Origin: Mobula birostris
Taxonomy: Eukaryota
DNA length: 64,000 nucleotides
Assembly: GCF_030028105.1 (NCBI RefSeq)
Contig: NC_092380.1
Location: forward strand, 94,183,530-94,247,529
Direction: 5' to 3'
The first letter of the stretch is position 1; the number at the start of each line of letters is the position of its first letter. Of this stretch, positions 1 through 64,000 are shown in pieces. A program made the position numbers and the translations under genes. The notes beneath the pieces are model-generated. The model was not told where the DNA came from and made no database searches. It saw nothing but the letters and a program-made list of their open reading frames with translations.

Positions 1-1840
1 TGATCATAGAATGATACATCGAGGAAGGAGGTAGATGGGATTGTTCAGGGAGCACCTTTAGACTAAATGGGTTGAACAAACTCTTTCCAAGTTTGTAACA
101 AATTCAAAAAATAAAAGTCTACAAACTGCTGAACCAGACTTATTGATAGTATAACTGATTTTATGTTACATATTACTCTAGATAATGCATCCACCTGAGA
201 ATAATTTGGCTGGAAAGTCTGTGCTTTGACTCAGCAGGTTCTACATAGGAAGATAATGCTATTTTCACGCTAAAGAAACTCTCAGTTTTAAATAATGCAA
301 CAAATATAGACATGACTTTCAATAATATATGGCTAAATCATTTAATTTTATTTGGAAACAGATACTTTTGTGTTCTTAGTATACTAATGGGAATATTTTA
401 AATCTATTGGTTGGAGAAAATTACGAAGTATCACAAATGCTCTTTAAAGGGTAAATATATTGATGTCACTTTATGGTCACATGTTGAACACACTAACAAT
501 GTTCAGTATGTCATTAAATCAAGAGCAGACTGCCAGCTCTTTACATCGCAGACTGGAAGGTTTAATGGAATGGAGGAAACCACAACTACTTGTTGTTAGA
601 AAAGGTGGGCTGCTTGATTGCTATGCGAATCAAAACTCCGATTGAGAAAACATTGCTTGTTGAATCTGGTATTATATCTGACATCTTCATTTTCAAGCAA
701 AGGAAGAGCTCATGATCCTGGTTGTAAGTGTCTAAAAAGGATTTAAGTATGCTTGAAAAGATTGGGCAGTAGATTTATCATTCACAGCTGAAAGAATTTA
801 TTACCAGCCAAGAAGGATTTCATTGTCTCAGCCTCTCCCCACTGCCTGAAGCAGGGAGCGAAGGACCTGTAAACCATTTGTGGAGTGTCCATTACATTCA
901 GTTCGCCAGAAGTGTTCAATGGAAATGTATGAAATAAACAGTGGCAGGCTTGCAAATAAAGCTATGCCTTTTGATAAGGTCTTGGAAAATTGTAGGAATA
1001 AGTTTAACTTGCGTGATTGCAACGTTGTGTCCAAGTGCTTAATAAATCAATAAGCAAATTGAATTTAAGCATTTCATCCTCCAAAGAGTTGATCTGCTTT
1101 CACTAAAATTAATTTTGTACTGCATCAAACTATATTGGACAGCAACAACATCTGTAGTGTTCTACCTGTGATTTTACAACCACCAACCACAATCTGTACA
1201 GGATGGACTGTGGTATCAGCAAATGCTTCATAGCACCAACCAACCTGCTCATCATTTTGCTCCTCCAATCAGTATAATAACATTTTTTCCTGGATGGATA
1301 GGAAAACAAAAACTAAACACAAGGAAGGAAAGACCAAGTAATATTTACTTGCTGTGTATTTTAAATGTCAAGTTGCCATTAAGCAATAAGAACATTGTAA
1401 TTCAATCATGCACAGTACATGCCGTACCACACAAACTAAAGCATTAAATGATTGAAATAATCACTATTTAATGGTGCTTTAGAATAACAGGAAGCTTTGG
1501 GAAACATGCTTGGGGTCACTACTATTGACTTGTTATTATCTTGTGGTAATTCTCACAAACTGCCAAAGATAAAGAAGTGTTATTCATCTTTTAACAGAGT
1601 TGGTACTAACTTGATGACAGTCAAGGAATGCATTGCTTCTTAGTGGGAAAACAAAACAATTCTCCTATTGAAGGCTATCCCTTTTCAAAGCTTCTATTAT
1701 AAATGTTGCCATAATCTGGCTTTCATCTTTAACAATTTCCCTGACTAGCTGCTAAAATATCACTAAAACCCCAGTATAATGGTTAGTAATTTAACGAAGT
1801 TATGATACTTAAACTTAACAGAGCAAGGCACGTACAATAC

Positions 1841-1941
1841 CTAAAGGGCATGCGGATGTTCATTCTTTCTGCATATTTACATATTGTTTCCCAAGGTGCG
1901 TGGAGTTTCACAAACATTATGTCACTATTTGTGATGGATTG
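1841..1941 (-). CDS. ANO3: Anoctamin-3 coding exon (exon 6 equivalent), phase 0-2, 101 bp
   Basis: Acceptor TTTCTGTTTCTTTGTAACCACAG|CAA; donor TTTAG|GTATTG. Encodes [33 protein letters not shown](R), a conserved anoctamin motif. Absent from the ORF track. Confidence 0.95.
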
Positions 1942-2837
1942 CTGTGGTTACAAAGAAACAGAAATAGGAAGTAAGTGGCTTTCAAAATACTTTCACATCA
2001 ATATCAATACAAATTCAGGGAGAGTGTATTACGCGGCTCTACAAATTCAAATCAGTGGTCAAAAGCTTAATATGTAATAAAAGATATTCCTTCATATACA
2101 GGGCATCAAAATTTATAATATCATCCCATACTTAAAATTCAATTAGGTCTTCACCTCATCGTCAAATGTTTCCAAAGGTCATTTTCTTTAGGCAGCAAGA
2201 CTAATGAATCACAGGAACCACACAGCAAATCTAAATTGATTTTGAAGGCACCAACAAATGGCACAGATGGCAAAGTAAGGATACTTGAGGATTTTATTGT
2301 AACATTCACAAATAAACAATAGCTTAAATAGGAATCATCAGGCTGAAGGTTAGAAATCCACATCAGCATGTATAATGGTGCCATTACTTTTTACTGCACT
2401 TTCCAGTTCCAGCAAAGTGACAATGCATCTACAGAAACAAAATTCTCTTTTGCGCTCTTGTGTAAATTTCAAGTATGTTAATTCCACTGATGGACAAGGA
2501 ATCCTCCACAAAAAGGGTAATCACTAGCTTGTTACTCTAAACCTTGCTCAATTCTCTCCATTACCTTATAAATTATCACTGCTGACATTAAACACAAAAT
2601 ACTCTGCAGATGCTGGGGTCAAAGCAACACTGCTGACATTAAGTGCCCACCCAAGTGATCTACAGGATTTCCAGAAAGGAATGTTGCTTGATTCTGTCAT
2701 AGTGCAGGCAAATTCTCTGTCACTTTCATAAAAATAGGGAACAAGAGCACAAGTGGGTCATTTTGTCACAGGCATGTTGGGTCAACGGTTTCTTTCTATG
2801 CTGTATGATGTAATGATACTCAATTAGCATTTTTTCA

Positions 2838-3032
2838 TGTGAGGGAGGGGTTGGGGAGGTTTGGGGTTTGCGAGTTTTTGTTCCTTTTTCTTTTTCTGTG
2901 GGGAGAGGATTGATGTCTTTCTTTCAACTACTTCGATGGTTTTCTGTATTTTCTGGCTGTCTGGAGAAGACAAATCTCAGAGTTGTATTCTGCATTCATA
3001 CTTTGATAATAAAATGAACCTTTGAACCTTTT
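2838..3032 (+). mobile_element. 3' fragment related to the ~800-bp non-coding retroposon family
   Basis: Ends in AATAAAATGAACCTTTGAACCTTT, like the tail at 35711-35736. Confidence 0.5.
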
Positions 3033-3163
3033 TTAAATGATGGATTCAAAGTTACCCTGAACTTGAAGATGACCATGCGTTTGGATGGCAGAATTTTTCT
3101 TAAGTGTAAACCTCCTGTTTAAGATATTCATGAGTTTATTAAGAACTGGATTCTCACCCATGG

Positions 3164-3580
3164 AACACACATAAAAATTGCTGGTGAACACAACAGGCCA
3201 GGCAGCATCTATAGGAAGAGGTACAGTCAACATTTCAAACCGAGACCCTTCATCAGGACTAACTGAAAGAAGAGCTAGTAAGAGATTTGAAAGTGGGAGG
3301 GGGAGATCCGAAATGATAGGAGAAGACAGGAGAGGGAGGGATGGAGCCAAGAGTTGGACAGTTGATTGACAAAAGGGATACGAGAGGATCATGAGACAGG
3401 AGGCTTAGGGAGAAAGACAAGGGGAAGGGGAAGCCCAAAGGATGGGCAAAGGGTATAGTGAGAGGGACAGAGGGAAAAAAAGGAGAGAGTGAAAAAGAAA
3501 GTGTGTATATAAATAAATAAATAACGGGTGGGGTACGAGGGGGAGGTGGGGCATTAGCGGAAGTTTGAGAAGTCAATGCA
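3164..3580 (-). mobile_element. Penelope-like element 3' end / pseudo-LTR
   Basis: Highly similar to 63032-63453; decayed hammerhead at 3225-3260 (CTGATGA...GAAAT). Confidence 0.8.
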
Positions 3581-11125: not shown

Positions 11126-11900
11126 AAAACCATTTGAGGGGGGGGAGGAAGAGCACCCCAGTCAGACGGACATAATGGCATCAGACCCAGGCAATGAACA
11201 AACGACAATGAGGAAGCAGTATGCATGTGGCAAAGTCTGCAAGAACGATCGCGGCTTGAAGATCCACCAAGCGAGGATGAAGTGTTTGGCGGGAGCAGGA
11301 GCAGCACAACGCGCAGGTGTCCAACCTGGTGAGACAGAGGAGGTGCCAGGCCCGGAGTCAACCCATAGTGCCTGGAACCTCCAACTGTTGCAAACTAATC
11401 CCTCGAACATCAAGTCTAACAGGAGGTGGATCTAATGGCCTGCAGCTAACATGACTTCATTGTGGAAGCAGCTTGATGAAGATGTTAACCAAATTCTGGA
11501 GGCAATGGCGAAGGGAGGGGTTGATAGGAAACTGCAAGCCATGACAACAATCATTGCCAGCTTCGCAGTTGAATGGTTCTCCCAGTGGCGGTTGGTTGTA
11601 GGGGATTCGCAGCCTGTTCCTTAGTTAGAGCCTTCAGCAATTTGGGCATCGAGGGAGAGAGGAAGAGGAGAGCCATCCGCAGTACCACCGATGCGGCAGA
11701 GAGGGCCTCAAGATGGCTGTGGCTCAAAAGAGGGGAGCCATGGAGTCATAAGTAGCTAGCCATCTGGACACAAGCTGGGGTCTGATCAGCCCTGGCTGGG
11801 TCACCTGGAGAAGGCTGTATGATGTTGAAAGACCCGAAACACCCGATGATTCCAGGAACATCACTGAAGATGTGTCCAGAAGCATCAGTCGAGGTATGTA
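11126..11900 (+). mobile_element. Internally deleted HERO-like (REL-endonuclease) non-LTR retrotransposon
   Basis: N-terminal zinc-finger CGKVCKNDRGLKIHQARMKC joined near 11579 directly to C-terminal PV.VGCRGF...AAERASRWLWLKR and the 3' UTR; no RT. Confidence 0.8.
11813..11876 (+). ncRNA. Candidate non-circularly permuted hammerhead ribozyme in HERO-like 3' UTR (subfamily 1)
   Basis: GGCTGT-A-TGATGTT ... GACCC-GAA-ACACCC ... AACATCA-CTGAAGA-TGTGTC. All core residues are present, stem I is 7/7 bp, stem III 5/6 bp, stem II irregular. Confidence 0.7.
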
Positions 11901-12824
11901 CCCAGCAACTTTATAAAGCACGAGTTAGGCTGCATCTGGAGTATTGCATACAGTTCTAGCCACCCCATTATAGGAAGCATGACAAGCCTTTGGAGAGGGT
12001 GTAGAAGAGGTTTACAAGGATTTTGCCTGGATTGGAATGAATGTGCTCGAACAAGAGGTTGGACAAACTTAGGTTGTTTTTTCTGGAGTGGCAGAGGCTG
12101 AGGTGAGATCTGATAGATATCTATAAGATTATGAGAGGCAGAGATAGGCAGTATCTTTTTCCCAGGGTTGAAATGTCTAATACCAGAGGGCATTCATTTA
12201 AGATGAGAGGAGGTAATGCCAAAAGAGATGTGAGGGACAAGTTTTTTTTCTGACACAGAGCGGTGAATGCCTGGAATGTGCTGCCTGAGATGGTGGTAGA
12301 TACATTAGCAAACTTTTAAGAGACAATTAGATAGACATATGAATGGAAAACAGAAGAACATTGTGTAGGCAGAAGGGATTAGTTTACTGAGCCATTTAGT
12401 TGGTTCAGCACAACACTGAAAGCTAGAGGGCCTGTTCCTGCGCTTACTGTTCTATGTTCTATATTATGGGGAGAAGACAGGAAAAAGGGTTGAGAGGGAT
12501 AATAAATCAACCATGATGGGATGCTGGAGTAGACTCTATGGGCCTAAAAGACTAACCTGGCTCCTATTTATTATGATTTTATGATATGTATCCTACCCAT
12601 CCTTTGAACCCTAATTTGTAATACTCCTGCTGTTCAGATAACAATTAGCTAATGTTTCATAGATCATCGAGTAAAAACAGGGCCTTCTTGATCTACTTGG
12701 CTCACTTAGTAGGTGCTTCAACCGCATGATCAATCCAAAGAGCTAATTCTAACTAGAAACTTCTGAAGACATCATAACCTTTGACATTAAACATGTATAT
12801 AAATAATCAAACTTTTGTTCTGAC

Positions 12825-12983
12825 CTCTCTTTCAAGTTGCAGTCCTTCTGCCCGCAGATTCTTTTCGAAGGTGCTTCTTTTCTCTACATGCATATCTGAT
12901 TTTTTGTAGACCAAAATATAGTCAATCCTTTTCTTTCCATCTTTGAAGAACAGACTGTCTTCCAGTACCAAGTGGCCTTTATG
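12825..12983 (-). CDS. ANO3: Anoctamin-3 coding exon (exon 5 equivalent; start of anoctamin dimerisation domain), phase 0-0, 159 bp
   Basis: Acceptor TTGTTTCCTTTGTCCAG|CAT; donor GAG|GTCAGA. Encodes [53 protein letters not shown] ([14 protein letters not shown] and [11 protein letters not shown] as in ANO3). Confidence 0.95.
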
Positions 12984-32590: not shown

Positions 32591-32607
32591 ATTTAAGTAA
32601 CATTTAC

Positions 32608-33565
32608 CAGAAGATGTTGGCTGCTTGGCATTGCTGCCTGCCACACTTCCAACAGTGCCCTTACATCATCAGCCAAGGACTACCATTCATTGATGTTTCA
32701 CCCCCTTAGCCCTGGTACACCTCCTGGTGGCAGAGCAGGGGCAGGGATGCCCCCCGCCTCTGCCATCCCCTGCGGCTTTCAATGGGCTTAGTCGGTCCCC
32801 AAAGTTCTGCCCTTCCTCCTCAGCCACAGCCAAAAGCTGCCCTTTCCTGCCTCTTCAGCTCCAATCACTATGTGGATTATCACAGAGTAACCTTGTCGTC
32901 AACGCGCTGATGAAGTCCCGTCATCCTTCCTCCACAGGGTAGATGATGGTCCTCCAACCAGCTTCCTTTCACTCAGCTGCCAGGTCTGAATACTTCAGCC
33001 TCTTCCACTCGTGGGCAGCCTCCACTCCTCCCTCCCGTGGGACAGTTAACTCAATGAGGAGGGCTGTCTTGGTGGTCATGGACCACAGTACTATGTCTGG
33101 GTGGAGAGATGTGCTGGTGATTTCCGTGGGGAACTGTAGCTGTCTGCCGAGATCTGCCCTCATGTTCCACTCCTTGCCTGTGGAGAGGCGTGCTGAAGGA
33201 GCTTTTGGGCGGGTGCATTCAGCGCTCTGACCAGCCTCTACAAATGGGATGAGTTGTCATCCTGCTGGGGAGAGGCAGCTTCTCACATCCCACCTGCAGG
33301 TCTCTAGGATCTCCACCAGCTTCTTTAGGAACTGGTCATGCCACCATCTTTAGTGCCCCCGGGACACCGCAGTCTTGCATCCTGCCAAGATGTGTTGGAG
33401 GTTGGCATTGGTGGTATCATACAGGGGGCAGCTACCCTCACTGCTGAATCGCTGGTAAGATCTCGGGGGGGGGGGGGAGGGCAAAGTATCATATGTTGCC
33501 CTAATGAGGAAGTTGAGTCTGGCATGTGGGACCTTCACAAGTCAGACCAGCTGAATGACCTGTTG
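32608..33565 (-). mobile_element. HERO-like element copy 1, 3' part (CCHC knuckle, REL endonuclease, 3' UTR)
   Basis: CPL....ANLQHILAGC; PDIVLWS..LIELTVP.E....A...K..KY. Confidence 0.85.
32660..32721 (-). ncRNA. Candidate non-circularly permuted hammerhead ribozyme in HERO-like 3' UTR (subfamily 2, copy 1)
   Basis: Minus strand GGTGT-A-CCAGGG-CTAA-GGGGGT-GAA-ACATC-(13 nt)-CCTTGG-CTGATGA. Core intact; the stem II partner is disrupted by a small deletion. Confidence 0.65.
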
Positions 33566-34940
33566 CCCGGATGTGGCCATCTCAGCCCTTCTAGTCCATG
33601 CCGAACTCCTACTCTCACCTAGTCCCACCGACCTGCACTCAGCCCATAACCCTCCATTCCTTTCCTGTCCATATAGCTGTCCAACTTAACTTCAAAATGA
33701 CATCATCGAACCTGCCTCAACCATTTCTGCTGGAAGCTCGTTCCACACAGCTACCATTCTCTGAGTAAAGAAGTTCCCCCTCATGTTACCCCTAAACTTT
33801 TGCCCTTTAACTCTCAACTCAAGTCCTCTTGTTTAAATCTCCTCCACTCTCAATGGAAAAAGCCTATCCATGTCAACTCTATCTATCCCCCTCATAATTT
33901 TAAACATCTCTATCAAGTCCCCCCTCAACCTTCTACGTTCCAAAGAATAAGGACCCAACTTGTTCAACCTTTCTCTGTAACTCAGGTAACATTCTAGTAA
34001 ATCTTCTCTGTACTCTCTTTATTTTGTTGACATCTTTCCTATAATTCAGTGACCAAAACTGTACACAATACTCCAAATTTGGCCTCACCAATGCCTTGTA
34101 CAATTTCAACATTACATCCCAACTCCTATACTCAATGCTCTGATTTATAAAGGCCAACATACCAAAAGATTTCTTCACCACCCTATCCACATGAGATTCC
34201 ACCTTCAGGGAACTATGCACCTATTATTCCTAGATCCCTCTGTTCTACTGCATTCTTCAATGCCCTGCCATTTACCATGTATGTCCTATTTTGATTAGTC
34301 CTACCAAAATGTAGCACCTCACATTTTTCAGCATTAAACTCCATCTGCCATCTTTCAGCCCACTCTTCTAACCAGCCTAAATCTCTCTGCAAGCTTTAAA
34401 AACCTACTTCATTATCCACAACTCCACCTATCTTAGTATCATCTGCATACTTACTCATCCAATTTACTACCCCATCATCCAGATCATTAATGGCAAATAA
34501 CACTGGACCCAGTACAGATCCCTGAGGCACACCACAAGTCACCGACCTCCAATCTGACAGTTATCCACCACCACTCTCTGGGGTCTCCCATTCAGCCACT
34601 GCTGAATCCATTTTACTACTTTAATATTAATACCTAACGATTGAACCTTCCTAACTGACCTTCCGTGTGGGACCTTGTCAAAGGCCTTACTGAAGTCCAT
34701 ATAGACAACATCCACCGCTTTACCCTCATCAACTTTCCTAGCAACCTCTTCAAAAAGTTCAATAAGATTTGTCAAACATGACCTTCCATGCACAAATCCA
34801 TGTTGACAGTTCCTAATCAGGCCCTGTCTATCCAGATAATTATATATACCATCCCTAAGAATACTTTCCATCAACTTACCCATCACTAACGTCAAATTCA
34901 CAGGCCGATAATTGCTAGGTTTACTCTTAGAACCCTTCTT
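33566..34940 (-). mobile_element. CR1-like LINE inserted in HERO copy 1
   Basis: NYRPV.LT...GK.ME..QHGF...RSCLTNL..MDFSKAFDKVPH. Confidence 0.9.
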
Positions 34941-34941
34941 A

Positions 34942-35736
34942 AAGACGGCGCTGAATGGCGACTCCTTTGCTTGCATTTTCAGAAACAGCTCTATTTCCAT
35001 CTTTAATATCTTTATTTTCCCCTTTCTGGGTTCTTTTGAAGACCCTGACCTGGAGTTACACACAGACTTTGGCTCTTTGCGGGAATGGGACCAGTTCTCG
35101 GGGTTTCAGGACTGGTTGTTATCCGACATGCCAAGGGTGCGGCCTGAGAGTCCGCTTGTATTTGGAAGCCTAAGATCTGGAGATGGGCTGGTATCACGGC
35201 AGGAGACTCGTGTGTCATCGGGAGGGCCAGAAAATCTTTTGCTGTGAGCCTGAAGGCCCAAGATTTTGGTGATTTTTCAGGCACAGAGCTTGTAAAAAGC
35301 GACAAAACAGGCTTTTAACATCGCAAACCAGCAGGTTGTTGTTATGTCTCCCTGCTCGCTGTGAAAATGGGGGACACCTCCCTCTCCCTTATTAGGGAGA
35401 GAGAGAACCTGTGTTTTGTCGAATGCTGGTTGAAATGCGAAGTCTTTTTGAGTTATAGCAGGTCTGTGTCTTTGCTACTGCCTAGTTCACGCTTGTGCTC
35501 GACGGTGGTGCTGATGCTTGCTTTTTTTTGCCGGTGGGGGGAAGGGGGATTGTTGCTCACTGCCACTTACACGCAGGAGGGGTGAGCATGGGGGGGACTT
35601 TGGGGTTCTGTCGTTTAACTGTCGTTCATTCTTTGGGGCACTTCTCTGTTTTCTGGATGTTTGCGAAGAAAAAGCATTTCAGGATGTATATTTGTATACA
35701 TTTCTCTGACATTAAATTGGACCTTTGAACCTTTGA
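34942..35736 (+). mobile_element. ~800-bp non-coding retroposon, copy 2 (complete)
   Basis: Starts AAGACGGCGC; ends ATTAAA..ACCTTTGAACCTTTGA. Confidence 0.8.
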
Positions 35737-35830
35737 TGGTGCCCTCCCAGGTTGTCCATCTTCCCTGATGGCCCTGTGCCATTGCCTTCACCCTGTGACA
35801 CTCCTGCTCTGTCCTTGTCACCTCCTCCAC
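35734..35830 (-). mobile_element. HERO-like copy 1, isolated middle piece
   Basis: VEEVTRTEQE..VKAMAQGHQGRWTTWEG; collinear with copy 2 (43090-43185). Confidence 0.8.
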
Positions 35831-35999
35831 CAGGAATTCTCAACCGGGGTTCCACAGAACCCGAGGAGTCCATGAGCAGCTGCAAGGGGTTCCATGAGAG
35901 ATTGTGATTTGAAAAAAAAACATTGTTTTATGAACCTCACGCAGCGCACAATGCTAGCGCTCCCAGCGGTGGGCAGTGACCGAGCAGCCCTGTTAGCGA

Positions 36000-36132
36000 C
36001 GCAAACATGAGGAGATCTGCAGATGCTGGAATTTTAAGCAACACATATAAAAGTTGCTGGTGAACGCAGCAGGTCAGGCAGCATCTCTAGGAAGAGGTAC
36101 AGTCGACGTTTTGGGCCAAGACCCTTCGTCAG
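36000..36132 (-). mobile_element. Short Penelope-like end inserted in the hAT element
   Basis: TSD CTGTTAGCGA at 35990-35999 and 36135-36144. Confidence 0.8.
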
Positions 36133-37666
36133 CTCTGTTAGCGATCTCATTAGCCGTCTCTCAGCCCAGTATGACAGTGCGCAGTAGGACCGTGTTCATT
36201 TTGGTTGAGTCCATTCTCAGTTTTAGGCAAGATGGAGGAAGCTGTGGATAATTGGTGAGCGCTGTATTGCACGGAGAGGAGGAAAAAAGTCTGATCAGGA
36301 GCGTAAAGTGTGTTTTCCGAGCATGTCTGACTTGCCCAACTTGGGCCATGACATCAGTCCTCCCTCCTGAATTACATCCAACTTTCCCATATGTGCCGGT
36401 GACTGACTTATGGGAGCGAACAAACTTTACCAGCGTAGTACAGAATTGGAGGAAAATTTTCATTCTAAAGAAGGAATTTTTACATGCCTCAACTCAACTG
36501 CTGGCCTGCCACTTTGCTGTTGTTGTAAACGTTGCAAAAGTTGGATTGTGTTGTTTATAAGTGTATTGTATTGTGATGTTTTTGTATTTTTGGTGGTTTT
36601 CTCATTTAGTTATTTATTAAGCCATTCTTTTCTACATTTTATTAACCCCTGTGTTTTACAGACATGTCTGACAGTCCAATGTGGTAATTTTTAAAGAGGA
36701 GATGTGAGATTGAAGAGGAGGTGTGAGACGGAAGAGGAGGATTCCAGCCCTAGGGCAATGGACAATTCCGATAAGGATAATAATTAAGAATTACAGTCTT
36801 CTCAGTCATTTCATTTCACTAGTACAACAATGAACAAAAAAAAAGCTACTTACCAATGAGTTGTACGTGGACTACTAATCCTAGTTGTCCTATTCCATTG
36901 TGCCTAGTTTACAACTTACAATAGCTCCAGCAAAATTGAAAACCCACTTAACTACAAATCACAGCGATATGACATGTAAAAGTGCCGATTATTTTAAATG
37001 GCTATTGGAATCTCAAAACAGAGTAAACCTCTTGTTAATAAAGTCACAGTCAGTAAAAGTGTGGGGAAGCAAGTTATTTAGTAGCAGAACTTATTACCCA
37101 GAAAAGGAAAAGTCACACAGTTGGTGAGAATCTAATAATGTCAGCATGTAAAATTATAGTGAGTAAAATGCGAGAACAAGATGCAGTATGAGATGTCAAA
37201 AAGGTTTCACTCTCAAACAGTACGATAAGTCAATGTACTGATGACATGTCACATGATGCTGAAAAGGTTTTGTGTGATAAACTGAAAAACAACAGCTTTT
37301 CTATCCAGGTTGATGAGTCAACAGATTCCACCAATAAATGTCATGGTACAGCATTTGTAAGATTTATAAATGATGGTGAAATTCAAGAAAACTTTTTCTG
37401 GTGCAAAGATCTGCCCGAAATAAGCAAAGGCCAAGATATATTTAATGTTTTGTCTCCATATCTGGAAAGAAAAGGTTTATCTTGGAGGGACTGCGTTGGC
37501 ATCTGAACAGATGGTGCCCCATCAATGGTTGGTTTCATGAGAGGCTTTCTTTCTCTTGTAAAAAAAAGAGACAATCCTTACAGTCACAACACACGGCTTT
37601 CTTCAGAGAGGTGCTGATGACAAAAACTCTTGGAGATGAAATTAAAGAAATGCTACAAAAATGGTT

Positions 37667-38113
37667 AACTTTATTAAACAAACACCAGTTCATTCGAGAA
37701 TGTTTAAAAAAAAACTGTGAAAACCTGTACAGAGAGCAAACCAATCTTCTGCAACGTACAGAAATCCGGTGGCTTATTAGAGGAAGAATTCTCAACGGGG
37801 TTTTTGAGCTGAAAGGGAAACTTTATTAAACAAAGACCAGTTCAGTCAAGAATAGTTAAATAACAAACTGTGCAAATAGCACACTAATCTTCTGCAACAT
37901 ACGGAAATCCAGTGGGTTAGCAGAAGAAGACTTCTCAACAGGTGTATCAGCTGAAAGCGGAACTTTATTAAACAATGACCAGTTCACTCGAGAATGTCTA
38001 AAAAACTTTGTGAAAACCTGTACAAAAAGCACACCAGTCTTCTGTGACATACGGAAATCCGGTGGCTTAGCAGAGGAAGAGTTCTCAACAGGGTGCTTGA
38101 GCTGAAAGGTGAA
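37667..38113 (+). repeat. Triplicated ~150-bp segment in the transposase gene
   Basis: Three diverged units, each starting AACTTTATTAAACAA and containing GAAATCC.GTGG and GCTGAAAG. Confidence 0.85.
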
Positions 38114-39404
38114 TTGCAGGAGTACTTTCAATAAAATAGTAGGCCGGCTTTTGCTGACTGCTTTGAAGATGAAGAATGGCTACAGAAACTAGCCTACTTA
38201 GCAGACTTTTTCATCATATGAACCGGTTGAACAAGTCTCTGCAAGGCCCTGGTGAAAATGTTTAGAATTCAAGTGACAAGATTCCTGGATTTAAAAGGAA
38301 ACCAAACCTTTGGAAAAATCATGAGTGAAAAAGAAATCTTGAAATGTTTCCACTGTTGCTTGGGGCTTGAGAGTGAGGAAGGATATCAGAAAGTCTTGAG
38401 TCTTATTGAAGACCACCTGGAAGAACTGCAGAACAAAACTGAACAATACTTTTCCTCCCTTTCAACACAAGTGTATGACTGGGTGAGGGACCCTTTCTCT
38501 GAATCTTCTGCTCAGCCTGAACACTTGACTTCGAGAGAAGAGGAAGAATTTTGTGAGCTGCAGTCTGATCATGCACTCAAGGTGAGAATTACTGACCTGT
38601 CCCTGGGCAATTTCTGGATTTCTGTGTAAGAAGAGTATCCTACCATTCACAGGAGATTAATGAACATTATGCTGCAGTTTTCATCTTCTTACTTGTGTGA
38701 GCAAGCTTTTTCTTGTTTAACAAGCATCAAGAGGAAGGATAGAAATCATCTCATTTCAATTGAAAGTGAAGTCAGTGTGTGCTTATCTTAAGTTCAACCC
38801 AGAATTGAGTATTTGTGCAGCAAAAAGAAAGCTCAGGTTTCACATGTTAGGCCTATATTTGAACCTGATCATGTCATTTAGCAAGAACATATTTTTTCAA
38901 AGTCTTGCATAAAATTGTGTCTTAGGCTATATTTTTATTCATATTGCTTTGGCTTCTGGTTTTTAGTTAACTTTACTGATCAACATTGTCAATAAATTTT
39001 CATGTTGTAAATAGGATTAATTAAAATCAATTTACAACCTTTAGTTAAGTTAAATCTACTGAGCCTACCTTTGGAAAAATTAAATCCCATTTTGGCTTAA
39101 GTGAGAAATTTACAATGTTTTGCCTGATGAGTTTTTAAATTTATGTATGTGAAAGAAAGAGATTAATTATTTCAAGAAAAGTAAACTTATATTAACTATC
39201 TGTTTTATTTCAATAAAAGTTGGCTAAAAATCATTCTCTGCTTAAAAAAGCATTGACAATTATTCCTGGATTATTATTTCTACAACTTACTGATCACTCT
39301 AACATGCTGTGATCTGTAGATAAATTAATATTTACGCAGGCATTCCCTGAGACCGGAAAATTATTTTAAGTGTTCCTCCAGAGCAAAAAAGTTGAGAAAG
39401 ACTG

Positions 39405-42095
39405 TTCTACACCACCATGGCTTTCCTCTCTTTCTTTGAGAACTTGGACCAGAAATACGAAGCCTTCCCGCAGACAAATCCTGCATGTCCAGCCTGGACA
39501 CTGCTGACGACCTCTTGGTGCTGCCAGCTGCTGATGGCCTGGTCTACTTTCAGCTTGAGCTCTCCACTTATGGCCGGTACGGACTAAGGCACTGGCGCTC
39601 CACATCAGCGGCTCAGTGGACTCCCTCAGCTCAATGACCAGTCGGGTTTTCTTCTGCTTGTACCCCAGGCTGGTGGACCTTAGTGGCAGCTGCAACATGT
39701 TCTTCCTGAAGAGGCCAGTGTCCGAGAGACCCAGCCATTTCAGGAGGTGGGAGTTGGCTATCCCATCCGTCCTACTGGCTGATGAGGGAATTTTACACAT
39801 TTTTAGGGGCCACCTTTGGTACAGTGTGAATTGTAGCACAACACTTTATACTTTCCAGGTAGTAGGCTCTGATCGATTCTGGCCAGGCTCTCTGCGAGCT
39901 GTTTCTGTGCTACTTTTCCCATCTGCCTGTCAGAGAGTTCTGCGGTGTACTACCTCCCAAGGCTTTGGATGGGCTGCCTGGCCAACCATGGGATTTCCTT
40001 GCCCCCTACACCAAAGGTGATGTTGTCACTTCAGACCCCTTTTCGAAGGGACAGGCTTTGCGACTTGGAGATGTTGATCTTCACCTTTGCCCATGTCATT
40101 AACTCATCCAGCCTCTTCAGCAGCCTTCTTGTGCATGCAACCATTTTAAGGATCTTTGTGACATCATCCTTGTAGCTTCTCAGCGGAGGAAGCCTCTGTC
40201 CTGACTGTAGCTTTATCCCTCCAACCACCTGTCTTGCTCCAATAAGGATGATCTCAGAGGTGGCTACAGACAGGATGGGAGAGATGGAACACCCCACTGC
40301 AATACCAACTTTGAACCTACTTTTGTGAAGTCTCTAAAAGAGAAGCCCATTTGGAGGTCACTGAGGTAAACAGAAACCCGGTCTCTAATGCAGTCAGGAA
40401 TGTAAAAGAACTCCATCGCAAAGTTGATGAGCTGGTGAGGCACAGATCCAAAGGCATTCACAATACCCAGCCACACAACATGTTGGTCACCTTTCTCACA
40501 GCTGGCTTGTTGGATCTGGTCCCACATCATTGATGTATGTTCCACATATCTCGGGAAGGCTAGAACTCCTGCCTTCTGGCAGCCGGGATCAATGTAGCCA
40601 TTGCCCATGAGGTAGCTGGTCATCCTCTCAACTATGACAGAGAAGATGATTTTCCCCTCGACATTCAGCAGTTCAATGCTCCTGCAGTTGATGAAACTGG
40701 TGTTCTGCTCTTTGGAGATGAAAACCACCACAGCTCTTTGCCGCTCTGGTTTTTCAAGGCAGTTCTCATTAGGTTCCCCAGGATCTTTCACACACCAGGC
40801 AGTTCTTATAGAGTTTGTAAGGAATTCCGTTCAGACCTGTCGCTGATGCTGACTTTGCCCTTTTGATGACTTCTCTGACTTCACTTAGCTTGGTGTCCAA
40901 TGAAACAGTTGGGCGAGCAGGATGTGGGACGTATCCTGGTGATCCAAGAGAAGAGAAGTTGTCCTTGCTGGATCACTGTACTGGCCCCGATGTACCGCTC
41001 CAACTCCTTTTTGGTGGCTTCTAGCTTCCCGTTCTTATAATCCTCCAACAGCTGATGGCATATTTGAAGGGATTCCTGAAGCAGCTGTCTCTCTCTCTCT
41101 CTCCCCCCTTCTTTCTCCTGCACTTACACATGCACTCTGCCCTTCACATCCTAGTCAACTTCTGCTTTAATTCGTTCCACTAGGACTTTAAGTCCACCTT
41201 CTCTTCCTGTGTTGCTTTCTTGCACTTCTTCCGCACTGGCGCCGACTTCATGCTAGCTGCTCTACGTCCTTCTCCCTTCTTCCTTTTCCTCCGAGAGCAG
41301 CGACATGTTGAGCTTGATGTGAACTTCACCAACTCTATTCCTATATGCCTCATAGAGGAAGTCTCCAAATGAGTTAAGCTTGCCTTCTGCTCGGCCGCGT
41401 AGCGCGTGTTCTAGGATCACGCTCGGGCCCAGTCTCTGCCACTCGGACACTTCATTCACCTTTGGCCCCTTGATCTTGTGCCTCATTCCTGGTTTACTTT
41501 GTGGTGTGGCTCCACAGATGGGGGGATGTCAGGTGTATTTGTGTGTTTACACATGGGGGGGGGGTGGTGTTTACCCTCCATTGTTAGGCCTTTCTTCCCT
41601 ATTAATATATCACCAACAGTAATGATGGGTCTTTTAGCCCTGTGGTTTACTTCCTGGCTTTGCGTTACTCTTGTCTGATCTGCCACAGCTGTGCAAGGTT
41701 GCTGTTGGCCTTGCTCACTGCACTTCATTCTCCCCTGATGGATTCATAGTCCCCTGTGTGTCATGTTCATCACGTTCTCCCATCCATGCCTGCATTTCCA
41801 AAGGATGTTTACCAAGTTGCCTGTATTAGATCTGGTCATTGCCACGCAATCCATCCTTTTGGGCCATTCTTTCATCCCGCCTCTCAGGGGGCCTTTGTGT
41901 TGTTTTCTCTTATTCATCTCTGTAGTCATTGATAGTGTCTCTGCCACAAGAAGCTCGCGGATAGGGTGACTAGCTGACAACTCCTAGTGCAGACTTTCCT
42001 GTAGTCATCCAGTTTTACCTGGACGTCCTCCAGTCTTCCCTGGACTTCAACTGACCTTTCACAGTAGTCAGTGGATACCCAGAAGTTTCAATGAG
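39405..42095 (-). mobile_element. HERO-like element copy 1, 5' part (5' UTR, N-terminus, RT)
   Basis: RSIELLNVEGKI.F...QKAG....EH...VVWL...NAFGSVPH; GCSISPIL; SYKDDVT. Confidence 0.88.
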
Positions 42096-42100
42096 ATCTA

Positions 42101-43230
42101 CAGGAGGATGTTTCCTGCTTGGCATTACTACCTGCCGCACTTCCAACAGTGCCCTTAGTTCAGCTGCAGGATCATCAACCAGGGACCACTATTCATTGAT
42201 GTTTCGCTCCCTTAGCCCTCGTACAACTCCTGGTGGTGGAGCAGTGGCAGGGACCCCCCATGCCATCCCCTGCGGCTTTCAGTGGGGTTAGTCGGTCACC
42301 AGATTTCTGTCCTTCCTCCTCAGCCACTGCCAGTAGCTGCCCTTTCTGCCTCTTCAGCCATCTATCTGATGGCCCTCCTGAGCTTCGCTCCAGTCACCAT
42401 GTGGATTATCACAGAGTATCCTCGTCGTCGACGCACCAAGATAGTGCTGGCATCCTTCCTCCACAGGGTAGATGATGGTCCTCCAACCAGCTTCCTTACA
42501 CTCAGCTGGCAAGTATGAGTACTTCAGCATCGTCTGCTTGTGGGCAGCCTCCACTCCTTCCTCCCATGAGATGGTTTACTCACTGAGCAGGACTGGCTTG
42601 GCAGCCATGGACCACAGTACTGTCTGGGTCGAGAGATGCGGTAGTAACTTCAGTTGGGAACTGTAGCTGCCTGCTGAGATCTGCCATCATATTCTACTCC
42701 ATACCTATGGAGAGGAGTCCTGAAGAAGCTCTTGGGCAGGTGTATTCAGCGCTCTTACCAGCCTCTACAAATATGATGTGTTGTCATCCCACGGGGGAAA
42801 GGCTGCTTCTGGCATCCCCCCTGCAGGTCTCAAGGATCTCCACCAGCTTCTTCCAGACTTGGTCATGCCACCACCTGTAGCACCCTTGGGATGGCACAGT
42901 CTTGCATTCTGCCAGGATGTGTTGGAGGTTGGCGTTGGTGGTATCACACAGGGGGCAGCTACCCTCACTGCCAAACCACAGATGAAGATCTCGGTGGCAG
43001 GGTAAGGTATCATATGTTGCCCTGATGAGGAAGCAGAGTCTGAAATGTGAGACCTTCCACGAGTCAGATCTGCTGAATGACCTGTTGATGGATGCCCTTC
43101 CAAATTTTCCATCTTCCCTGGTGGCCCTATGCCACTGTCGTCACCTTGTAGTACTGCTGTTCTGTTCTTGTCACCTTCTCCACTACCATGGCTGTCTGCT
43201 CTTTCTTTGAGGCCTTGGACCAGATACAAC
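42101..43230 (-). mobile_element. HERO-like element copy 2 (5'-truncated 3' portion), directly upstream of copy 1
   Basis: Collinear with 32608-33565 and 35734-35830; EAAH...KY..L.AEC.EAGW..YPVE.GC. Confidence 0.85.
42165..42227 (-). ncRNA. Decayed permuted hammerhead motif in HERO-like 3' UTR (subfamily 2, copy 2)
   Basis: Minus strand GTTGT-A-CGAGGG-CTAA-GGGAGC-GAA-ACATC-(13 nt)-CCCTGG-TTGATGA-TCCT. C3 is mutated to U. Confidence 0.55.
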
Positions 43231-44359
43231 GAGTGTTGAATATTTTATTTAACTTTGGGAGATTACCCTCTCAGTCATCTCCTCTCAAAGTTACTTATTA
43301 ATTTTTCCCTCCTAACTCAAGTCCTCTGCAGCTGAGGATAAGCCTCATATCCTGATTTGATTAAGTAGCCCAGACCTTACAGAAGAAAAGGTAGCCATTT
43401 GTCCCTAGATACTCTATTAGTAACTGGATGGGGCATAATTTACTCCCACACCATTCTATGTAACTGTACCATTCAGCATCTGGTTTGTTTTTCTGGTTGA
43501 TTGCTGCACTGCAGTTAAAAGACTTGTTACATGCAGAACCTAAAATCTCAGACAAGAGTTTTTTTCCCCAATTACATTGCATCACATTTATCCATATTCA
43601 ATTTCATCTGCATTGACCTATTTTAAGAATTCCAGTGCTGGCTCTTAGGATTAATCTTCCTTGATTTTCTAGCTCTCAAAATGAGCTATCCTTGGTTGCC
43701 AAAGGCATCTCAATTTGATAGCATCAGAAAAGTTGGCTAAGTTCCAGTTTTCAGGTGATAGGCTAGAACTGCACCTATCTTCTCCGTCGTATTAACTCAT
43801 CCATGCCATCAGATGAATCACTTTTCCACAGGCCCGTTTTATATTCAAAAGTTCATGACCACATTCAAACACTGCAAAGAGACAAATAACCACCAAAGAG
43901 CCACAGAAGATAATATTCTAAATGGCACCTTCTGATTAGATTTTAATCCATTTATATGAGCCACTTTGATTTCCATTTGAGTTCCAGATATAAATTACTG
44001 CATAGAAATGACTTCTTGGTGATGTTTTGATTTCAACCCCTGGAAACATATGCATTTTTCACCTGCTTATCTCCTCCACAACTAATGGACTCACTTTCAA
44101 GGACTCTTCATCTCAGGTTCTCAAAATTTATTGCTTATTTATTTATAATTATTATTGCTTCTTTTTCTAGTTGTACAGTTTGTTGTCTTCTGCCACTGGT
44201 TGAATATCCTAGTTAGTGCAGACTTTCATTGATTCTGCTATGTTATTATTCTGTAGACTTATTGAGTATGCCCACAAGATAGTGAATTTCAGGGTTGTAT
44301 ATGGTGACATATGTGTACTTCGATAATAAAATTTGCTTTAAATTTTGAACCTTCCTTTA

Positions 44360-62995: not shown

Positions 62996-63909
62996 CAAAC
63001 AACAGGAATTCTGCAGATGCTGGAAATTCAAGCAACACACATCAAAGTTGCTGGTGAACGCAGCAGGCCAGGCAGCATCTCTAGGAAGAGGTACAGTCGA
63101 CGTTTCAGGCCGAGACCCTTCGTCAGGACTAACTGAAGGAAGAGTGAGTAAGGGAGTTGAAAGTGGGAGGGGGAGGGGGAGATCCAAAATGATAGGAGAA
63201 GACGGGAGAGGGAGGGATGGAGCCAAGAGCTGGACAGGTGATTGGCAAAAGGGGATACGAGGGGATCATGGGACAAGAGGTCCGGGAAGAAAGACGGGGG
63301 GGGGGGGACCCAGAGGGTGGGCAAGGGATATATTCAGAGGGACAGAGGGAGAAAAAGGAGAGTGAGAGAAAGAATGTGTGCATAAAAATAAGTAACAGAT
63401 GGGGTACGAGGGGGAGGTGGGGCCTTAGCGGAAGTTAGAGAAGTCGATGTTCAAATATTCCGTCTGGGTAGCCTCCAACCTGATGGCATGAACATCGACT
63501 TCTCTAACTTCCGCTAAGGCCCCACCTCCCCCTCGTACTCCATCTGTTACTTATTTTTATGCACACATTCTTTCTCTCACTCTCCTTTTTCTCCCTCTGT
63601 CCCTCTGAATATACCCCTTGCCCACCCTCTGGGTCCCCCCCCCTTGTCTTTCTTCCCGGACCTCCTGTCCCATGATCCTCTCGTATCCCCTTTTGCCTAT
63701 CACCTGTCCAGCTCTTGGCTCTATCCTTCCCCCTCCTGTCTTCTCCTATCATTTTGGATCTCCCCCTCCCCCTCCAACTTTCAAATCCCTTACTCACTCT
63801 TCCTTCAGTTAGTCCTGACAAAGGGTCTCGGCCTGAAACGTCGACTGCACCTCTTCCTAGAGATGCTGCCTGGCCTGCTGCGTTCACCAGCAACTTTGAT
63901 GTGTGTTGC
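62996..63909. mobile_element. Young Penelope-like insertion with inverted pseudo-LTR (palindrome)
   Basis: Arms 63032-63453 and 63489-63909 are near-identical inverted copies; 35-nt spacer from the ORF end (IFRLGSLQPDGMNIDFSNFR*); TSD AAGAAAGAGAATT at 62983-62995 and 63910-63922. Confidence 0.92.
63095..63130 (-). ncRNA. Minimal type I hammerhead ribozyme of a Penelope-like element (intact core)
   Basis: AGTC-CTGACGA-AGGGTCTCGGCCT-GAAAC-GTC^GACT. Stem I AGTC/GACT, short stem II, loopless palindromic stem III (ACGT), as known for PLE hammerheads. Confidence 0.8.
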
Positions 63910-64000
63910 AAGAAAGAGAATTAAAGTTTTACATTGTCCTGCCTAGACAGATGGTGCCCAACTTTTCTGAATACTTCTGTCATATTCCGAATACTCATGG

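Follow-up and report, generated by a model that had tools for sequence, protein, structure and literature searches.

What is the hammerhead-like motif in the 3′ UTRs of the HERO-like retrotransposons at this locus, and what might it do for the elements that carry it? The window, by which we mean the whole 64,000-nucleotide stretch of Mobula birostris DNA under analysis, holds elements of two lineages, called here S1 and S2. The S2 element comprised the following features:

32600–43240, minus strand: 1.3-unit S2 HERO-like insertion, a head-to-tail partial tandem, decayed and split by nested insertions (tblastn and repeat identity)
42096–43240, minus strand: 5′ terminal repeat, an ORF end and 3′ UTR running unbroken into the next unit's 5′ UTR
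39413–41492, minus strand: decayed, frameshifted ORF body (N-terminal region and reverse transcriptase), with 5′ UTR and body in the block 41492–39413 (tblastn)
35669–35839, minus strand: small ORF fragment between two nested insertions (tblastn)
33565–32600, minus strand: 3′ terminal repeat block, ORF end and 3′ UTR
32788–33565, minus strand: ORF end in the 3′ repeat, with CCHC knuckle and PD..D-type endonuclease motifs (translation, tblastn)
32790–32788, minus strand: stop codon TAA of this ORF end

A tblastn search with full-length relatives placed the ORF pieces in colinear order from 43240 down to 32912, which indicated one insertion, and its two terminal repeats were 80% identical over 1 kb. 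What a first-pass annotation had called a sister copy at 42 kb is thus the 5′ terminal repeat of this one insertion. No target-site duplication was evident by eye in this insertion or in 14 S1 insertions. The insertion lies sense to a host anoctamin gene on the same strand, as had been annotated; it may be intronic, and the gene may be ANO3:

about 12813–12950, minus strand: anoctamin exon (PF16178 match, PDB anoctamin matches)
about 1840–1992, minus strand: anoctamin exon

Elsewhere in the window, at 63027–63914, a repeat element forms a near-perfect palindrome of ~890 bp (arms 95–99%, 35-nt center), which accounts for spurious Rfam miRNA matches.

Each terminal repeat carried a copy of the ribozyme-like fold. 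The copy in the 3′ repeat sits 70–130 nt past the ORF stop codon on the minus strand, and the two copies were laid out as follows:

32666–32777, minus strand: ribozyme-like fold of the 3′ repeat (sequence, alignment, S2 column counts)
32777–32768, minus strand: P0 5′ strand, its partner strand deleted
32767–32737, minus strand: hairpin H
32736–32732/32704–32700, minus strand: stem II
32730–32725/32685–32680, minus strand: NC helix
32724–32722 and 32691–32687, minus strand: k-turn-like GGA and AAT-GA
32721–32717/32696–32692, minus strand: stem III, followed by A17 at 32716 and the predicted cut between 32716 and 32715
32715–32710/32678–32673, minus strand: stem I, with GAA at 32699–32697 and CTGATGA at 32672–32666
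32721–32710, 32699–32692 and 32678–32666, minus strand: the letters GGTGT-A-CCAGGG, GAAACATC and CCTTGG-CTGATGA, respectively
42162–42277, minus strand: ribozyme-like fold of the 5′ repeat (sequence, fold fit, S2 column counts)
42277–42268/42171–42162, minus strand: P0, with hairpin H at 42267–42243
42242–42238/42210–42206, minus strand: stem II (GCTCC/GGAGC), with the NC helix from 42236
42227–42223/42202–42198, minus strand: stem III, with the predicted cut between 42222 and 42221 and stem I from 42221
42178–42172, minus strand: core TTGATGA (C3U)

The letters first reported for both places were present on the minus strand, including TTGATGA at 42 kb. Judged by these letters, both copies are damaged and neither is likely to be active. 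In the 3′ repeat, a 12-nt deletion, also found in 3/30 S2 copies, takes out the P0 3′ strand, and the true stem II still pairs with three G-U pairs. The 5′ repeat has C3U plus single mismatches. The damaged copies folded no better than shuffles (z 1.09 and −0.01). The first reading was therefore correct in calling both copies damaged and in naming C3U, but its 'stem II deletion' is the 12-nt loss from P0.

The window's S1 copy lies on the opposite strand:

11139–11905, plus strand: S1 HERO-like copy with an internal deletion, unit positions 649 to 3310
11763–11880, plus strand: S1 copy of the fold
11763–11772/11871–11880, plus strand: P0, with H at 11773–11797 and stem II at 11798–11802/11831–11835
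11804 onward, plus strand: NC helix, then stem III 11813–11818, the predicted cut between 11819 and 11820, stem I from 11820, and CTGAAGA 11864–11870

Proteins of S1 and of a third lineage, S3, clustered with pufferfish BAC82598 and AAN12398 (100/100 support). We take BAC82598, BAC82599 and AAN12398 to be HERO/Zebulon non-LTR retrotransposons, and our use of the name HERO rests on the same assumption. The annotation had described S2 as a subfamily; in a tree without outgroup it instead formed a deep separate branch, sharing 37–39% amino acid identity with the pufferfish members of the S1 cluster. Open frames in S1 reach 1166 amino acids. Separately, S1 (L044, 76–1563, versus P0002) and a flatfish element shared 87% protein identity, and the S1 3′ UTR was near-identical to a metagenome contig (L169) that matches that element, which suggests a putative horizontal transfer between teleosts and the genome of Mobula birostris, a cartilaginous fish. 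No relatives occurred among the viral contigs searched.

To describe the fold beyond the window, we assembled 28 S2 copies (30 loci fetched, two near-duplicates dropped) and a set of relatives made up of the S1 and S3 loci plus 68 metagenome loci at 39–70% protein identity. Fifty-five anchors gave 54 fitted folds, of which eight poor fits were dropped, and the remaining 46 represented 25 families (<75% identity; mean 50%). Read 5′ to 3′, the elements of the fold are the P0 5′ strand, hairpin H, the stem II 5′ strand, the NC 5′ strand, a GGA-like segment, the stem III 3′ strand and NUH; then the stem I 5′ strand, a linker, the stem II 3′ strand, GAA, the stem III 5′ strand, a bulge, the NC 3′ strand, the stem I 3′ strand, CUGANGA and the P0 3′ strand. 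Paired cells over the 25 families numbered 147/150 for P0, 122/125 for H, 122/125 for stem II, 121/125 for stem III and 117/125 for stem I, and most helix columns held at least three pair types. Strand-swap controls averaged 0.46–0.74, and the observed pairing was unmatched in 2000 swaps. The NC helix was also fitted across families, its pair counts coming from S2 only.

The helix fit rewarded pairing, penalised linkers and required U16.1. Because such a fit is biased toward pairing and short linkers, we added a helix search that was blind to the core letters. Results showed that 17/88 regions scored above the shuffle maximum (22; n = 264), and 15 of these 17 placed CTGANGA, GAA, A-U and H at unconstrained positions; of the other two, one had G12A and one was mis-registered. 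Regions within the ORF never rose above the null. A strict descriptor matched the motif downstream of 36 of the 49 ORF ends that had 170 nt or more of following sequence, and nine more were recognized by eye, leaving two ends that stop short of the motif's place in relatives and two without the motif. Within S2, stem I was paired in 137/164 cells, stem III in 123/140 and NC in 148/167, and the commonest pairs were Watson-Crick in the five helices counted. The commonest S2 core letters were CTGATGA, GAAA and GTA (9.7% of letters departing from the column majority), so that the predicted stem I and III complementarity and core held in the S2 consensus; the core was intact in 6/28 copies by alignment, or in nine when three copies with the 12-nt deletion, which keep CTGATGA, are counted.

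Branches with long 3′ UTRs (L210, L222, L213) have the motif 450–720 nt past the ORF end, and loci L207 and L231 have apparent extra sequence at the four-way junction described below. Two other readings, a hairpin around CUGAA in S1 and a Box C/D interpretation of UGAUGA...CUGA, were each limited to one family and were set aside. The 5′ UTRs of diverged families open with a shared CCAGTGAC...GGAAAG-type repeated motif, seen at many loci about +100 to +135 past the cut; the CCAGTGAC...GGAAAG-type motif is a candidate promoter or priming signal.

We concluded that the six-helix fold in HERO-like 3′ UTRs is conserved and selected, and we hold this as nearly certain. S2 stem I does differ from that of S1 (11820–11863, plus strand) at 4/6 pairs in the same register, as first noted; the strongest evidence for selection, however, is the covariation over 25 families, which outweighs the in-window covariation advanced before. 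Chance resemblance in repeat-rich sequence, for which one might cite the CCC/GGG runs of S2 and the shuffle-like folding of the window copies, is a negligible prospect given the core-blind recovery, the placement of the motif downstream of ORF ends, the 25-family covariation, and the fact that 42/42 strict descriptor matches in the fetched loci lay on the element sense strand, 3′ of the ORF.

The first-pass model was a plain type-SGC hammerhead, in which stem II is made with the strand after CUGAUGA. In S2 this has some appeal, for CCCT pairs AGGG given three bulged bases before GAAA (81/93 cells). Over the 25 families, however, the same pairing reached 54/125 cells (64/125 with one base skipped), which falls within the strand-swap control (0.42), and its first pair formed in 1/25 families and in 0/23 S2 copies. 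That strand instead forms P0, a separate long helix, with an upstream partner (147/150), and stem II consists of the strand before GAAA and another upstream strand (122/125). We therefore regard the plain type-SGC model as very improbable. That is, the motif is hammerhead-like, in the non-circular S-G-C order and selected, as had been proposed, but stem II had been misplaced and three covarying helices (P0, hairpin H and NC) had been missed.

With the helices placed, the core could be compared with the hammerhead definition in PMC3088659. C3 was present in 24/25 families, U4, G5, A6, G8 and A9 in 25/25, and N7 was free (four letters). GAA (G12 A13 A14) occurred in 24/25 and A15.1-U16.1 in 25/25, the core-blind search having imposed no U16.1. 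Position 17 was C in nine families, U in eight, A in seven and G in one; the NUH triplets were GTC (9), GTT (8), GTA (4), ATA (3) and GTG (1). Pair 15.2-16.2 covaries, changing from C-G to U-A in three families, and G10.1-C11.1 was found in 22/25, the first P0 pair being variable. Fixed and free positions thus obey the hammerhead rules, including H17 and N7, and stems I, II and III adjoin the core with the R10.1-Y11.1 rule satisfied.

Pair 15.4-16.4 is mismatched in most S1 copies. At −5 relative to the predicted cut, which is 11815 in the window, 95 S1 copies read T75, C11, G8 and A1, unlinked to other markers; this was the top non-CpG variable position within 216 nt, and its partner +22 was also raised (10%). 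The equivalent pair was the weakest in S2 (20/28 paired). Misreading by the reverse transcriptase at a modified or distorted base could produce the −5 variability. Position −320 of S1 was A or G near 50:50, non-CpG and unlinked, and differed between repeats in 3/6 insertions; RNA editing of the template is possible there.

The fold departs from an ordinary hammerhead in how A9 continues. Rather than leading into stem II within the usual 0–2 nt, A9 runs into P0, and the stem II 5′ strand lies upstream. The path from A9 through P0, H and stem II to G12 makes a four-way junction, with zero linker nucleotides in 20/25 families, in which stem II would stack on the G12-A9 pair and P0 on H. An extra base at the A9-G10.1 step is reportedly tolerated in a viroid hammerhead, a result that De la Pena and Flores are said to have obtained in 2001. 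In a k-turn, two helices flank a 3-nt bulge that leads into tandem G-A/A-G pairs, and stem III is extended into the NC helix through a k-turn-like bend, by sequence pattern, in 16/25 families; the other 9/25 have different bulges at this place. Loci L175/L176, L193/L197, L217, L231 and L207 show a one-sided bulge there in place of the k-turn pattern. By our estimate, a 6-bp stem III together with 6–7 bp of NC helix may fall short of the outer ends of stems I and II.

These features can be set against the type-SGC class (HRIMA-1 and variants; PMC10085705), which has in common with the HERO fold the S-G-C order, pseudoknotted stems I and II, the full core, a short linker from I to II, and a helix bridging the far ends of I and II. 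Eckert et al. (2023) count six block orders, assume block C to be uninterrupted, and found none of the type-SGC class when it came to genomes from known organisms. The HERO fold differs in that the chain is opened between A9 and G10.1 by the four-way junction (P0 plus H), the k-turn-like bend connects the SGC 5′ end to its 3′ end, and the fold sits in an animal genome and in retrotransposons and is a predicted ribozyme. Read this way, the HERO fold permutes the type-SGC hammerhead circularly, opening it at a supposedly unbreakable step, and would be expected to work like it; its block C is split, however, and we therefore leave it outside the type-SGC class. A broken A9-G10.1 backbone had no precedent in the literature searched, where no report of such core wiring or of a HERO ribozyme was found (subscription journals, Repbase/Dfam notes and bioRxiv supplements lay outside its reach), and the motif was unmatched in Rfam for the window and eight relatives.

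Does the fold cut? We consider it probable that it self-cleaves after NUH. A fold that cuts nothing and instead docks the element's reverse transcriptase or a k-turn protein of the host, perhaps hammerhead-derived, would explain why an uncut site is present at the 3′ end of all copies and why there is little pile-up of ends at the cut. Nested folding, too, recovered P0, H, NC and III and missed I and II, and the A9-G10.1 link is broken. Yet covariation is as good in stems I and II as in the other helices, the four-way junction makes the helices compatible rather than conflicting, and the fixed and free positions match hammerhead rules exactly over 25 families, H17 and N7 included. The geometry, moreover, agrees with the type-SGC fold of PMC10085705 down to the helix bridging I and II. 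A docking site without cutting is on this evidence an unlikely account, and self-cleavage is the reading we carry forward.

How a cutting motif could serve the element was sought in the structure of the insertions. HERO-like elements lack a poly(A) tail. S1 copies terminate ~86 nt beyond the predicted cut, and many extend by a few bases into the 5′ UTR that follows; a search for S1 copies ending at the cut gave 0 matches. Copies with a 5′ UTR carry a stump of the preceding unit, and partial tandem arrays have reportedly been described for Zebulon. Second-lap copies read through the cut in 20/40 S1 and 8/13 S2 cases. The unit junction was intact in 31/35 scored, seamless and head to tail, and joints at the cut were likewise seamless. 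Repeats within an insertion had in common nine shared rare non-CpG substitutions, in 7/27 insertions, versus 0.92 expected (permutation P ~2e-5 for substitutions only, 0.037 with gap columns included); L239/L240, with many shared variants, were excluded from this count as a DNA-level duplication with repetitive flanks. The window repeats had six doubletons in common over 934 sites, versus 0.65/kb, a count in which the 42-kb copy doubled as alignment reference and which 0.5% of 398 other pairs matched. Gene conversion could lie behind some shared variants, but some are 1–5 nt from an unshared difference, which is evidence against long conversion tracts. Overall divergence was the same within as between insertions (62 concordant, against 57 expected under independence).

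S1 units with internal deletions, 0.84–1.0 kb in length, are common (L278, L279, L282, L285, L296, L113–L141, window 11139–11905); their breakpoints cluster at unit 557–733 and 3253–3418, each slightly different. Three deleted-unit arrays that start mid-unit (L141 among them) repeat their own deletion junction. These units are apparently retrozyme-like non-autonomous derivatives.

Our best explanation, which we favor by a slight margin, is that the hammerhead-core fold cuts read-through transcripts and that re-ligation probably closes the unit RNAs into circles, which reverse transcription then follows for more than one lap. Transcripts of partial-tandem copies would be cut by the 3′ UTR ribozyme into unit-length RNAs, these would be re-ligated into circles, and the circles would be copied round. 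Half of the fold precedes the cut, so two complete ribozymes exist only in copies with a 5′ overhang of ~60–70 nt above the cut, and rolling copying would rebuild this overhang every round. The window insertion has the anatomy of such an overhang-bearing partial tandem, with both of its ribozyme copies damaged. Seamless tandems, shared rare variants and repeated deletion junctions fit one template read more than once, as in the retrozyme model outlined in PMC4918200, where RNAs are cleaved and circularised and yield cDNAs of different lengths. On the separate parts of this scheme our judgment is evenly divided: cleavage with a circular or re-ligated template may or may not be the main route, and ligation or circularisation with internal priming, which we infer, has about the same chance.

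The repeats of an insertion do not always agree, however. The +68 G marker was confined to one repeat in 4/4 insertions, −200 C in 2/2 and −210 C in 2/2, and position −5 differed in 7/20; therefore a model of two laps around a single circle cannot account for all insertions. Linkage crosses the cut (−200 with +68, p ~1e-3), and no break in linkage was seen there. Some 5′ ends do fall at the cut (S1 second-lap copies L143, L298 and L095; S3 copy L297), and metagenome contig L164 begins at cut+1. Such ends are rare, with two true ends among 2067 anchor copies (<1%; ~32% detection) and 0/6 in a separate count, and hint weakly that cutting does occur. Small deletions close to the cut were set aside as evidence of cutting, being mostly microhomology and having no control. 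Separately, 5/40 alignments start at +52/+53, directly past CUGAAGA (L143, L141, L113, L124, L129, L135; L141 is an internal rearrangement), possibly a reverse-transcriptase stop at the four-way junction. Assembled RNA contigs from four runs (24 listed) cover the 3′ UTR and carry no end, strand or circle information.

The discordant markers, the linkage between −200 and +68 and the ends at the cut in L143, L298, L095 and L164 would all suit an R2-like scheme, in which an active hammerhead does no more than trim a linear read-through RNA at its 5′ end, protein holds the 3′ copy inactive, and tandems come from reverse-transcriptase jumps between RNAs or from tandem donors. Half of the second-lap copies, however, pass through the cut. 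Jumps by the R2 reverse transcriptase usually leave extra bases, unlike the seamless joints seen here at the cut and at the unit boundary, and arrays that start mid-unit repeat their own deletion junction. We judge 5′ trimming improbable as the whole account, at about the level given to docking, and retain cleavage with re-ligated templates.

Retrozymes likewise have hammerheads in terminal repeats or tandem units (Cervera et al. 2016, PMC4918200; animal retrozymes, bioRxiv 10.64898/2026.07.22.740005), and their size resembles that of the short deleted HERO units (0.84–1.0 kb). Their hammerheads are of type I or III, and they rely on LTR or Penelope-like elements. HERO-like elements instead encode their own reverse transcriptase and endonuclease and so fall outside the non-coding, non-autonomous definition of a retrozyme. 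Penelope-like elements are of the GIY-YIG kind, with mostly minimal type I hammerheads. The likeness is a partial tandem with the ribozyme in the repeat (the pseudo-LTRs), whereas a HERO-like element is a non-LTR element that has a restriction-like endonuclease and whose fold is complete as a monomer. With R2 there is in common the broad retrotransposon group and the freeing of element RNA from a longer transcript; its ribozyme is of another class (HDV-like), lies 5′ and sets the 5′ end, whereas most HERO-like copies read through the cut.

Tentatively, then, these may be autonomous non-LTR elements that replicate via circular RNA, with a hammerhead of a seventh natural topology (the type-SGC class opened between A9 and G10.1 by a perfect four-way junction and closed by a k-turn), rolling, internally primed reverse transcription that rebuilds the terminal repeat, and deleted, retrozyme-like circles of 0.8–1 kb as by-products; we rate this full picture as possible rather than probable. 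If true, natural hammerhead topologies would extend beyond the six block orders that Eckert et al. describe, to a kind that descriptor and Rfam searches miss, and a non-circular class would be present in thousands of vertebrate-genome copies and in relatives of fish and mussel elements. RNA engineering would gain a ribozyme that has an open port for insertions at A9 and possibly a protein-controlled bend. For the elements themselves, it would give a testable reason for partial tandems without poly(A) tails and would link autonomous non-LTR elements to retrozyme-style circular RNA.
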